A stretch of 64,000 bases of DNA from an uncultured archaeon (GTDB lineage Archaea; Asgardarchaeota; Thorarchaeia; Thorarchaeales; Thorarchaeaceae): the NCBI GenBank assembly GCA_964558645.1, contig CAZLEV010000001.1, forward strand, positions 221,568 through 285,567, in the 5' to 3' direction. The notes under the pieces are model-generated. The model did not search any database and was not told the origin of the DNA. It worked only from the letters and a program-made list of their open reading frames with translations. The position numbers were made by a program, and so were the translations under genes. Of the stretch, positions 4,073-60,384 are shown piece by piece. How positions within the stretch are numbered: position 1 is the stretch's first letter; the number at the start of each line of letters is the position of its first letter.

Positions 4073-5260
4073 ATGAACGAATCCGTGGTCTACTTCACAG
4101 ACAGAGCTGCAGAGTCAGGATACAACATGCTGGACAAACTGGAACAAATATTCACCAGGCTGGGACTTGCGGACGACATCGAGCCCGGTGAGAAGGTCAT
4201 GATAAAGACTCACTTTGGTCAGTACGGCAATACAAACTACATTCGTCCCGCATACGTGAGAAAGATTGCTGACTTGGTTAAGAAGGCTGGTGGAATCCCA
4301 TTTGCTGCTGAAACTTGTGGACTGGGATATGGAACGACCGGTGTATTCTCAGGTAGGACGACGGCCCCTGATTACTTGGGGATGGCATCTCAAAACGGCT
4401 TCTCTGAGGCCACAATCGGCTGCCCCATCATCATGGCTGATGGTTACTGGGGCGTTGACACCTTTGATGTTGAAATCGACGGCGAGTTCATGGACAGAGT
4501 GGATGTTGCTGCTGCAGTACTCGATTGCGATAGAGTGATCATGCTCACCCATGCGAAAGGTCACGGTCTCAGTGGCCTCGGAGGTACGTTGAAGAATCTG
4601 GGCATTGGTCTAGTCGGTAAGCGGGGAAAGGCAGCTATGCACAATCTCGGCGACTTTGAGATTGACCCTGAGAAATGCCTTGGACCTGAGTGTTCCAAAT
4701 GCCTTAAGGTCTGTCCCACACGGTGCATCACGATGCAGGATGCAGCGCAGATAGATAATGACCATTGCGTCAATTGTGGGCATTGCCGTTCAGTGTGCAA
4801 TAATGTAGATGCAAAGGCTATCTCTGTGACGTGGAGGAATGCCGATGATCAGCCTCTCCGATTTGTGGAGAATGCCTTGGGTGTGCTAGACTCCATCGGT
4901 CGCGATCGTTTCTATCACATCAATCTGGCTATTGATATCAGTGACCTGTGTGATTGTTGGGGGGTTGGGGCTCCCTTGCTGGTTCACGATATCGGTATTC
5001 TCGGTTCGCGCGACCCCCTCGCAGTCGATCAGGCAACTCAGGACAAGATTAACGAGGCTCCCGCAAACCCCGATTCCCTTGTTGGTGACCTTGAATGTGG
5101 CGAGTGCAAGTTTGCCCACGCGCTCAGTGCAAGGAGCACGAATGTCGACGAGCCCGTAGACCGTGCCGAGATCCAGTTTGCCCACGCCGAGAAGATGGGG
5201 CTTGGAAGCAGGAAATACAACCTGGTTCAGCTGACTAAGGATGATTTCAGCAAGGACTAG
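4073..5260 (+). CDS. DUF362 domain protein with a 4Fe-4S ferredoxin insert
   Basis: IKTHFG..GN..YIRP, THAKGH..GG.LKNLG.G, CxxCxxxCP and CxxCxxCxxxC, CDC, S.DP.A.DQA. Confidence 0.88.
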   Translation: MNESVVYFTDRAAESGYNMLDKLEQIFTRLGLADDIEPGEKVMIKTHFGQYGNTNYIRPAYVRKIADLVKKAGGIPFAAETCGLGYGTTGVFSGRTTAPDYLGMASQNGFSEATIGCPIIMADGYWGVDTFDVEIDGEFMDRVDVAAAVLDCDRVIMLTHAKGHGLSGLGGTLKNLGIGLVGKRGKAAMHNLGDFEIDPEKCLGPECSKCLKVCPTRCITMQDAAQIDNDHCVNCGHCRSVCNNVDAKAISVTWRNADDQPLRFVENALGVLDSIGRDRFYHINLAIDISDLCDCWGVGAPLLVHDIGILGSRDPLAVDQATQDKINEAPANPDSLVGDLECGECKFAHALSARSTNVDEPVDRAEIQFAHAEKMGLGSRKYNLVQLTKDDFSKD

Positions 5261-44635: not shown

Positions 44636-44899
44636 ATGGATGAGAATCTACTTGCTCCGTGTGGACACTACTGTGGTTCCTGCGTAGTGTTCACAAAGGG
44701 AAAATGTCTGGGCTGTCGGGAAGAAGGAAAGAAGCGAGCTGCCGAGGGAATCGAGTTTTGTAAGATTCAGGAGTGTGCAACTCAACGGGGCGTTGCGTGT
44801 CACGAGTGTCCCGGCATGCCCTGTGACCGATATGGAGATTCGATATATAATAGCGGCTTCATCGATTGGATACGCGAGGAGCTTCAAAAGACCGCCTGA
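44636..44899 (+). CDS. DUF3795 family Cys-rich protein
   Basis: APCGHYCGSC.....CLGC...C.I..C......CHEC...PC. Confidence 0.85.
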   Translation: MDENLLAPCGHYCGSCVVFTKGKCLGCREEGKKRAAEGIEFCKIQECATQRGVACHECPGMPCDRYGDSIYNSGFIDWIREELQKTA

Positions 44900-44936: not shown

Positions 44937-45417
44937 CTAAGAGTGACCATGGCACATCTTGCCATTGAGGTGGTGCACAAAGTGGTCGCCCCTTCTCTTG
45001 AACCCTAGGCGGCGGTATAGAGTAGAAGTCGCATTTGCAGCCAGGAGGAAGACTTTGTCGACACCCATATTGGCGCACTCTTCCAAGACCTGACGAATCA
45101 TCTCGCTTGCGATCCCCTGTCTTCTCCGGTGGGGCTCTACAAACAGGTTGTGAAGGTATGCATCCACACCATTCGGCCCCTTGGGTCGTTGGTAGCGTAC
45201 ACATCGATGCAAGAGCACAGCCTCCCACCACTTCCTTCTCCTTGTATGCCAGAAAGCAAATGGGTCCATCATCCCAATTCTCTTCTAGGTGCTCCCTAAC
45301 CGATGCAGCCGTCAGCTCGAGTGAGTTACTATCCCATCCCATGGTTCGGAGCAGCTCGACTCGGTGGCGTACAATGAGTTCAACATGCGTGGGGTTAGCT
45401 CGAATCACTTGAATCAT
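44937..45417 (-). pseudogene. GNAT acetyltransferase with a +1 frameshift (paralogue of 55178-55657)
   Basis: N-half in ORF 44911-45417, C-half (PNGVDAYLHNLFVEPHRRRQGIA) in ORF 44937-45272; span 481 nt versus 480 nt in the paralogue; extra base near 45183. Confidence 0.85.
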
Positions 45418-45604
45418 GTATCTTCCACTCTCTTGCTATTCCTGCTAGGCTTGTGACAGAATGTACATGCCATGGTAATCATTCCCTCCGGGTGCCTCGA
45501 TGTTAGGTGCACCGAGGCCGGAAGAGATGTACGGAGTCTCCCTCACGCATCCGTTTGCCCTCGGAGATAGAGAGACCCTTTCAGTGGGTCACGAAATCAT
45601 GACC
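45418..45604 (-). ncRNA. Putative structured 5' leader, copy A
   Basis: Hairpins at 45587-45604 and 45494-45518 and a CTCTCTATCTC block, all shared with 55658-55847. Confidence 0.45.
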
Positions 45605-45640: not shown

Positions 45641-45658
45641 GCCGGCATGTGACTGTAT
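45641..45658. promoter_or_regulatory. Palindromic operator, site 3
   Basis: Minus strand ATACAGTCACATGCCGGC, then 8 nt, then TAAGAA; same layout as site 8. Confidence 0.65.
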
Positions 45659-55657: not shown

Positions 55658-55847
55658 AGTTCACATCTTCCTACAGATTTTGCAGGGGTTTCGTTGTTCG
55701 TGCTGAGTGGAAGTCTCCGAGTCCTCGGGGTGCCCCGGCAGCACTTTTGCCGAGGCACAAAGAAGTACTCGCAGTTCTTCCAGAGGGTGACTCTGTCCCA
55801 GGAGAGATAGAGAGTGTGCGTCTCATCGGTTCACCATATCGTGACCG
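55658..55847 (-). ncRNA. Putative structured 5' leader, copy B
   Basis: Hairpins at 55827-55847 and 55730-55758 and a CTCTCTATCTC block; stem covaries with copy A. Confidence 0.45.
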
Positions 55848-55880
55848 GCCTTGCTATGAGGTTTAGGACTTCTTAGTGTA

Positions 55881-55899
55881 GTGCCGTCACATGACGGCA
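55881..55899. promoter_or_regulatory. Operator site 8 (perfect 8-bp arms), between divergent genes
   Basis: TGCCGTCA-CA-TGACGGCA. Confidence 0.8.
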
Positions 55900-55984
55900 G
55901 AAGCAAGAAACGAGTCTTCGTATATCGAGATCCGAAGACCTGCGAAGTCTTCGTACTGGCATATCGATACTTCGCAAGCAGGAG

Positions 55985-59144: not shown

Positions 59145-59162
59145 GTACCGACAGGTGACAGC
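59145..59162. promoter_or_regulatory. Operator site 9
   Basis: GTAAACTTT-GTACCGACAGGTGACAGC. Confidence 0.68.
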
Positions 59163-59637: not shown

Positions 59638-60384
59638 TCAGGCCTCGAGTCGAGGAAAGGACTCGATGACCCGACTGAGATTGATCTCCTCTCGCTTCGA
59701 TTCGGGGGCCTTTCTGAAGAGTTCTAGATAGGGAACGAGGGCTGCAACGAGCTTGTTCTCAGCCTTTCTGAGATGCTCCTGGAATGTCGTTCGAACTACA
59801 TCAGCTTTCCTAGATATGGTCCGAACATCTGCCCCGCGCGGTATCTGATAATACCCGTTGGTATAGGCTGTGAGGAGAGCGTCGATCTGCTTGTCTGTAA
59901 GATCAGAAAAGAGGGCATCAGCTGTGAGAGTCAGAGAGCTTGCTATGAATCCGTCAAAGGGCACCTTTCGAAGTATCTCTGACTCAATCCCGCGCTTGTC
60001 CAACAGCCGCATCATCTCAGAGAAGTGGCTCTGTTTGAATGCCACCAGACGGTAGTGTTCCCATCCCTCCATGTACACAACGGGACTGATCTGAAGGAGG
60101 TTGCAGGAGTCAAAGAGGACGCTGACCGAGTTATCTTCAGTGCACTGGCAGTCCTTGGTGACTGCGTGTATGTTTCCACAGTCAGAGAAATGCTCCACAG
60201 TTGTGCCAATCGAAGCTGCGGCCTCAAGAAGTCCATCGATGTCCTCATAACCGTGAGTCACGAACTCCATGATCTCATGGTGGCGGTTACACCAGAGAAA
60301 CATCTTCACGTCGGGAAAGCGCCGCGAGAGATTCGCGAATGGGCAATCGTGTGTGAGCCTCAGCAGAATCTCAAACATCGTCAT
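59638..60384 (-). CDS. Bat/HTH_10-type transcription regulator (intact)
   Basis: C-terminal LTDKQ..AL..AY..GYY..PR......I......RTTFQEHLRKAE.KL; N-terminal HDCPF, WCN and CQC residues. Confidence 0.92.
   Translation of the reverse strand: MTMFEILLRLTHDCPFANLSRRFPDVKMFLWCNRHHEIMEFVTHGYEDIDGLLEAAASIGTTVEHFSDCGNIHAVTKDCQCTEDNSVSVLFDSCNLLQISPVVYMEGWEHYRLVAFKQSHFSEMMRLLDKRGIESEILRKVPFDGFIASSLTLTADALFSDLTDKQIDALLTAYTNGYYQIPRGADVRTISRKADVVRTTFQEHLRKAENKLVAALVPYLELFRKAPESKREEINLSRVIESFPRLEA

Follow-up and report, generated by a model that had tools for sequence, protein, structure and literature searches.

A candidate cis-acting structured leader upstream of paralogous GNAT genes in a single Thorarchaeota lineage

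The source assembly is a Thorarchaeota genome of 3.63 Mb in 37 contigs, with an RpoB domain 98% identical to that of the isolate TEKIR_12S, and the 64,000-nt stretch analysed here is referred to throughout as the window. On its minus strand, residues 55178–55657 encode a 159-aa GNAT protein (GNAT B; Pfam Acetyltransf_1, E 7e-14), the start codon of which is fixed by an in-frame stop 6 nt upstream. GNAT B is the first gene of an operon that continues with an ADP-ribosylglycohydrolase gene and a gene for a 281-aa protein, and it is preceded on its 5′ side by an untranslated stretch of about 190 nt, leader B. The paralogue GNAT A (44937–45417, minus strand) is read in two frames, split by a 1-nt insertion in a run of G near 45180, whereas its orthologue (P0004, from cassette A′) is unbroken and 159 aa long; the frameshift is due either to recent pseudogene formation or to an assembly error in the homopolymer. 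Both of the GNAT genes described in the earlier note are therefore present, with the correction that GNAT A is frameshifted in the assembly. A toxin-antitoxin reading of these genes was considered and rejected, as only generic GNAT matches were obtained and no antitoxin-like neighbour of GNAT was seen. In cassettes A and C the next gene after GNAT is a small DUF3795-like one, encoded on the other strand (window 44636–44899, plus strand; L019 about 4711–4974), with its own operator 60–61 nt upstream, and not a minus-strand ORF of 88 aa.

The paralogous unit of operator, weak TATA-like hexamer, leader of about 190 nt and GNAT gene occurs three times in the genome, twice in the window and once on another contig. 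The third leader (leader C, G000:C4:65723–65890, minus strand) was absent from the earlier note and was located by a motif scan and with a covariance model, R1, built on the leaders. This model has exactly three matches in the 3.63-Mb genome, with E-values of 1e-34 to 1e-36, and the match between leaders noticed earlier is thus beyond chance. Copy C has the same neighbours as copy B, namely a divergent coaB-like gene and genes for DUF362, Fer4 and HTH_10 proteins; a search for relatives of the coaB-like protein returned bacterial sequences of 30–44% identity and was uninformative. Directly upstream of the start codon of the GNAT remnant in copy C lies a MITE-like element of 555 nt (C4:65119–65673), and of the GNAT gene itself 27 codons are still recognisable, the remainder being deleted. 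Without the insertion, the layout of copy C is operator, leader and GNAT, matching A and B. The 555-nt repeat (L019:5120–5674) is non-coding and has about 17 further matches on 11 contigs at 68–89% identity. Its ends (GATAAACCATTTCTGACA ... GCATTTCTCTTGA) are conserved, an imperfect duplication of 7 bp borders it, and it has the appearance of a MITE-like mobile element. Protein searches gave one orthologue per cassette on metagenome contigs, A′ (L276), B′ (L274) and C′ (L277), for a total of six sequences. The contig carrying C′ has the 555-nt element at the same site.

Operator B is a perfect palindrome of the form CCGTCA-NN-TGACGG (CCGTCATGTGACGG) at 55884–55897 and is common to GNAT B and the divergent coaB-like gene. 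The genome contains three perfect sites where 0.21 would be expected, two of them ahead of leaders B and C. Operator A (45642–45655) is degenerate with two mismatches, and the operator of the orthologue A′ has only one. The GNAT start codons are found 226 nt (B) and 224 nt (A) from their operators, in agreement with the figure of about 225 nt given previously, and most other operator-adjacent starts lie at 37–103 nt. The exception, at 59148, is 253 nt from a Fer4 ORF, and in the orthologous contig a small gene is called in between. The GNAT promoters consist of the operator, 8 nt, the hexamer TAAGAA or TAAGGA, and 23–24 nt leading to the first base of a 5′ palindrome; in B the weak TATA-like hexamer TAAGAA occupies 55870–55875 (minus strand). 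The spacing from hexamer to palindrome is equal in A and B, and the last spacer is 24 nt in C. Judged from this promoter geometry, the probable transcription starts lie near 55846 for B and near 45604 for A; no convincing TATA-like element was found near the GNAT start codon.

The promoter of the HTH_10 regulator gene itself reads operator, 8 nt, ATATAT, 23 nt and ATG, a geometry from which the regulator mRNA would be leaderless. The regulator family and the operator are widespread, occurring in 36 of 85 genomes of the same family, mostly as the variant CCGACATATGTCGG before the regulator gene. This palindrome or a close variant lies about 37–50 nt upstream of most of the sampled same-family regulator orthologues (loci L146–L174), and the operator-regulator pair is on this ground much older than the leader. 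For the regulator in the window (59638–60384), the best non-self matches come from Bathyarchaeia and an Atabeyarchaeia genome with 54–58% identity (L175–L192), the best same-family match has only 52% identity, and two genomes of the same genus have no regulator. The closer matches outside its own family and the absence from these two genomes hint at horizontal transfer of the cassette. Between operator B and the start of the coaB-like gene (window 55914–55976, plus strand) there are interlocking inverted repeats built on CGAAGAC/GTCTTCG, which are absent from the paralogous region of copy C.

Three elements shared by leaders A and B had been singled out in the earlier note, and all of them were found in the sequence at the positions it gives. 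The first is a 5′ palindrome, P1, which reads CGGTCAC-gatatg-GTGAACCG in B (55827–55847, minus strand) and GGTCATG-attt-CGTGACC in A (45587–45604, minus strand). The second is an identical CU-rich 11-mer, CTCTCTATCTC, at 55804–55814 in B and 45564–45574 in A (both minus strand), which is predicted to be single-stranded and for which no conserved pairing partner was found. It is unchanged in A, B, C and B′ and carries a single change in each of A′ and C′. The 11-mer occurs 16 times in the genome; among the 13 occurrences outside the leaders, 12 overlap an open frame of at least 120 aa on either strand and the remaining one lies in ORF-free sequence on contig C6. The third element is a stem with a 7-nt loop (55730–55758 in B, 45494–45518 in A).

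When the paralogues are compared, 58% of four-fold sites differ, against 29–43% of the positions in the leader core (57–71% identical), which is defined as the predicted start through the end of the upper stem. Between paralogues, decay is seen in the spacer from TATA-like hexamer to start, in the loop and in the stretch downstream of the hairpin, and the 3′ part of the leader (55658–55717 in B, minus strand, ending at the GNAT ATG) is poorly conserved and cannot be aligned between them save for GAAGAT near the start. The orthologue pairs give a weaker signal. For A/A′, divergence is 8.9% over the whole leader and 10.8% and 20% at four-fold sites of the adjacent genes and of all genes, respectively, the comparison with the adjacent genes giving p 0.55. 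For B/B′, the core without its loop diverges by 6.4%, as compared with 13–18% at four-fold sites (p 0.005–0.05, a significance reached for this part only), and the P2-to-ATG segment shows 12% divergence, which is about neutral. For C/C′ the values are 6.7% over the whole leader and 4.9% at four-fold sites. On these sequence comparisons, short-term constraint between orthologue pairs appears weak.

With six sequences available, the stem described earlier proved to be part of a larger structure, a two-tier hairpin of about 54 nt that in A, A′, B and B′ comprises a lower stem of 8–9 bp, an internal loop, an upper stem of 9–11 bp and the 7-nt loop. In hairpin B (55718–55771, minus strand) residues 55762–55771 pair with 55718–55726 to form the lower stem (CGAGU.CUUC with GAGG.ACUCG), which is followed by a 3×3 internal loop and by an upper stem of 55748–55758 with 55730–55740 closed by the loop at 55741–55747. 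The upper stem of hairpin A (45480–45533, minus strand) is formed by 45510–45518 and 45494–45502, with the loop at 45503–45509. Across A, A′, B and B′, 98.5% of cells are paired over the 17 pairs of the hairpin; four pairs have changed on both sides and several further pairs change via G-U. The exchange of TG/CA for CA/TG on which the earlier note had relied was borne out, copy C adds a third covarying variant, GG/CC, and one upper-stem position shows GC, CG, UA and UG across the six sequences. The covariation score of the hairpin was matched by 0 of 500 shuffles, a statistic of little power since the six sequences represent three old lineages with two samples each; in a control in which the 3′ partner was slid by 1–3 columns, pairing fell to 37–49%. 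Imperfections are a U-U mismatch in the lower stem of A′, C opposite C in the uppermost stem pair of C′ and, in both C and C′, loss of the 3′ half of the lower stem through a 10-nt deletion. The two-tier hairpin is the one structure that RNAalifold supports when run on three, four and six sequences, every other helix that it predicts being broken in some copies. An A-specific helix (GGGUCUCUCU/AGGGAGACUC) was not kept in the other copies, and a B-specific outer helix (GGAAGA/CUUCC) was kept neither in the other copies nor in B′.

The pairing is also specific to one strand. All G-U pairs of the hairpin are valid only on the GNAT-sense strand, and each of the two substitutions that distinguish the stems of B and B′ yields G-U. 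In the four A and B leader sequences, predicted folding favours the sense strand over the opposite one by 1.5 to 8 kcal/mol, with values of −20.3 and −17.0 kcal/mol, respectively, for the upper stem of B and of −13.7 and −12.2 kcal/mol for hairpin A. The G-U substitutions together with the better folding of the sense strand point to a GNAT-sense RNA and away from a DNA palindrome bound by protein. Between copies, the loop sequences are unrelated. Substitutions between B and B′ are clustered, affecting five of the seven loop bases (55741–55747) and six of nine positions at about 55704–55712 as compared with about 6% elsewhere in the leader, and this clustering in the loop and after the hairpin suggests multi-nucleotide events and not independent point changes. 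An inversion of the loop was considered as the source of the change, and by eye the sequences do not fit it.

We favour, with moderate confidence, the explanation that the stretch is a structured 5′ leader, specific to this lineage, which affects GNAT expression in cis. According to this model, transcription would start about 23 nt after TAAGAA, itself 8 nt downstream of the operator of the HTH_10 regulator, and given a start beside the operator the GNAT mRNA would exceed those of the other regulon members by about 190 nt at the 5′ end. Some 130 nt at the head of the leader have persisted through the old triplication of the cassette, and they hold the CU-rich tract, predicted to be single-stranded, and the hairpin of about 54 nt, with pairing maintained and the loop not. 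Neither a terminator-like site nor a T-run was found after the hairpin, and transcription should for this reason read on into GNAT. The leader would then most likely set GNAT expression after initiation as a cis-acting RNA element, either as a platform that binds a protein or small molecule or as a determinant of stability or processing. In the copy with a dead GNAT, constraint has gone and so has part of the lower stem, which fits a cis role tied to GNAT, at counts that are small.

P1 may act either as RNA or as DNA. It is present in six of six copies with 83% of cells paired, but none of its pairs has changed on both sides and five of the six copies are imperfect: B and B′ have a bulge, C and C′ a mismatch, and A′ a mismatch at the top; only A is without defect. 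Its half-sites GTCA/TGAC resemble those of the operator, and P1 is positioned where the regulator genes have a second operator, so that it may be a DNA site. The 5′ hairpin proposed in the earlier note is thus present in both leaders, whereas its interpretation as RNA structure is not supported. The same observations raise the rather unlikely alternative that the conserved blocks in general work chiefly at the DNA level, where the HTH_10 regulator or a second factor would use them as promoter-proximal sites, with P1 serving as a second operator and the hairpin as a by-product. The dual-operator promoters of HTH_10 regulator genes indeed share with the GNAT promoters the operator, the 8-nt spacer, the TATA geometry and a second palindrome over the predicted start, and the operator and TATA-like hexamer are unchanged in B/B′ and in C/C′. 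These regulator promoters are, however, leaderless, with 37 nt from operator to ATG as opposed to a leader of about 190 nt at GNAT, and the spacer within the second palindrome is 2 nt, as it is in the operator, and not 8 nt as in P1. Moreover, sites on DNA would not account for a large hairpin kept by two-sided changes and by G-U pairs, which are mismatches in duplex or opposite-strand DNA, and hairpin B′ taken as a DNA palindrome has three mismatches in 11.

If the leader acts as RNA in cis, a more specific proposal is that the hairpin and the CU-rich tract form a ligand- or protein-binding sensor RNA, which would add a post-transcriptional checkpoint to the Cys-rich HTH_10 regulon; we regard this as unlikely. 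A check against Rfam 15 gave no match at gathering score anywhere in the window, and in E-value mode the three 3.2-kb loci around the genomic leaders matched only a miRNA model by chance (E 0.37, 40 bits below the cut-off). The earlier note had called the leader riboswitch-like, and the resemblance to riboswitches lies in the long leader before an enzyme that modifies small molecules and in conserved single-stranded tracts beside a conserved helix. Riboswitches nevertheless differ from the GNAT leader, in which a single irregular hairpin was supported and neither a multi-helix fold with a junction or pseudoknot nor an expression platform was found, the loop varies freely, and the distribution covers one species-level lineage. 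The expression platforms looked for were a terminator and masking of the start site, and for the latter the probability that the region from −20 to +6 is unpaired was the same in native leaders as in those with a shuffled core (z 0.2–0.5, in a thermodynamic model only). Partition-function models likewise showed no effect of the CU-rich blocks as a mask over the start region. The genome uses Shine-Dalgarno sites of the GGAGG type, and GGAAGAT near the GNAT start is not among its preferred words. A pseudoknot between the loop and the remaining leader was rejected for lack of a consistent complement of the loop. A riboswitch is accordingly possible but unsupported.

Other known motifs were set aside by inspection. 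The internal loop (UUU/CCC in B, UUCCG/ACCCG in A) has no tandem G-A pairs of the kind expected for a kink-turn or L7Ae site, an archaeal SECIS element does not suit a GNAT gene without in-frame TGA and a hairpin without a GAA/A internal loop, and C/D box and H/ACA readings were ruled out. The closest likeness is to orphan structured 5′-UTR motifs, which are known from comparative genomics, usually from tens to hundreds of diverged examples in many taxa, with ligand unknown. Like these, the GNAT leader is non-coding, lies upstream of one gene family, combines a compensated hairpin with conserved unpaired nucleotides and has no Rfam match. It differs in being represented by six sequences from a single Thorarchaeota lineage and in possessing one irregular hairpin.

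The earlier note had also suggested a small RNA. In this alternative the first 130 nt or so would be released by processing or termination and would act in trans on purine-rich start regions. The layout of 5′ hairpin, CU-rich seed and 3′ hairpin does resemble that of base-pairing sRNAs, no single-stranded piece is better conserved than the CU-rich 11-mer, and the Shine-Dalgarno sites of the genome are of the GGAGG type. We consider it distinctly improbable, because no T-run follows the hairpin and because C and C′, which are detached from GNAT, are unconstrained and have lost part of the lower stem; the unit is, in addition, always fused to GNAT.

The cis-acting leader has to be weighed as well against the absence of any present function, in which case a segmental triplication would have copied the leader along with GNAT as non-coding DNA, or it would be a MITE-like repeat, its decay in either event unfinished. 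Restriction to one lineage is in keeping with this. A search with R1 of 85 genomes of the same family gave no true homologue, the single match (E 0.096) having an unpaired stem; orthologues were found only on metagenome contigs. Pattern scans gave 55 matches in metagenome contigs and 33 in species genomes, which we attribute to chance as none of them fits R1, and the stem pattern matched six genomes of the family, about equal to a reversed-pattern control. At the loci of GNAT homologues in relatives, neither operator nor leader was found, and in most of them a gene for a membrane protein lies a short distance ahead of GNAT. The orthologue pairs of A and C diverge at about the neutral rate, and genes in cassettes A and C are damaged. 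Against these points, the core remains 57–71% identical with covarying stems while four-fold sites are near saturation (58%) and the flanks cannot be aligned. A mobile repeat would be expected to show dispersed copies, terminal repeats and target duplications; the three leader copies have none of these and all share the same gene context, unlike the 555-nt repeat beside copy C. Lack of function is therefore very unlikely, and the absence of leader homologues in relatives, set beside the widespread operator-regulator pair, indicates that the leader is a recent addition within one lineage.

Coding potential was examined in all copies. As claimed in the earlier note, there is no shared intact ORF: the copies are separated by two 2-nt indels, each frame is stopped in at least one copy and no frame is open across all of them. 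Leader A does contain a uORF of 22 codons with a CxxC motif (45414–45482, minus strand), the stop of which overlaps the GNAT start as ATGA. It is open in A′ with two synonymous and four conservative changes; the corresponding frame of B′ has no ATG, GTG or TTG, and in C the region is closed by stops. Among bacteria, leader RNAs of acetyltransferase and resistance genes include a proposed and disputed aminoglycoside-sensing leader as well as leader-peptide attenuators. The GNAT leaders are comparable in preceding a GNAT-type acetyltransferase and, in A, in having a uORF coupled to the GNAT start. They differ in their archaeal host, in the lack of a conserved ribosome-stalling or Shine-Dalgarno-masking structure, and in the uORF, which is confined to A and A′ where an attenuator would call for a short ORF common to the copies. 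That the leader codes, or once coded, for a small protein or leader peptide is thus highly improbable despite the uORF of A and an open frame with CxxC in B that ends 4 nt before the GNAT ATG, as the A and B peptides cannot be aligned, B′ has no start codon, C has stops, the conserved core itself carries the 2-nt indels and the stops, and the excess of third-position changes (8 of 16, by hand count) is not significant.

To our knowledge, descriptions of cis-acting RNA elements from Asgard archaea are few, and control after the start of transcription is little understood in this group; a search of the literature on Thorarchaeota riboswitches found nothing relevant. The weight of the present finding is limited by its confinement to one uncultured lineage. 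Within that lineage the three cassettes form a natural decay series, with B seemingly intact, A carrying a frameshifted GNAT, and C split by an insertion and left with a damaged hairpin. Should the leader prove to be a sensor RNA, it would count among the earliest cis-regulatory RNAs to be defined for an Asgard archaeon, with a recent origin in a single lineage. If functional, the cis-acting leader would provide a compact test case of layered control, in which an operator and then an RNA element stand before an operon that modifies small molecules.
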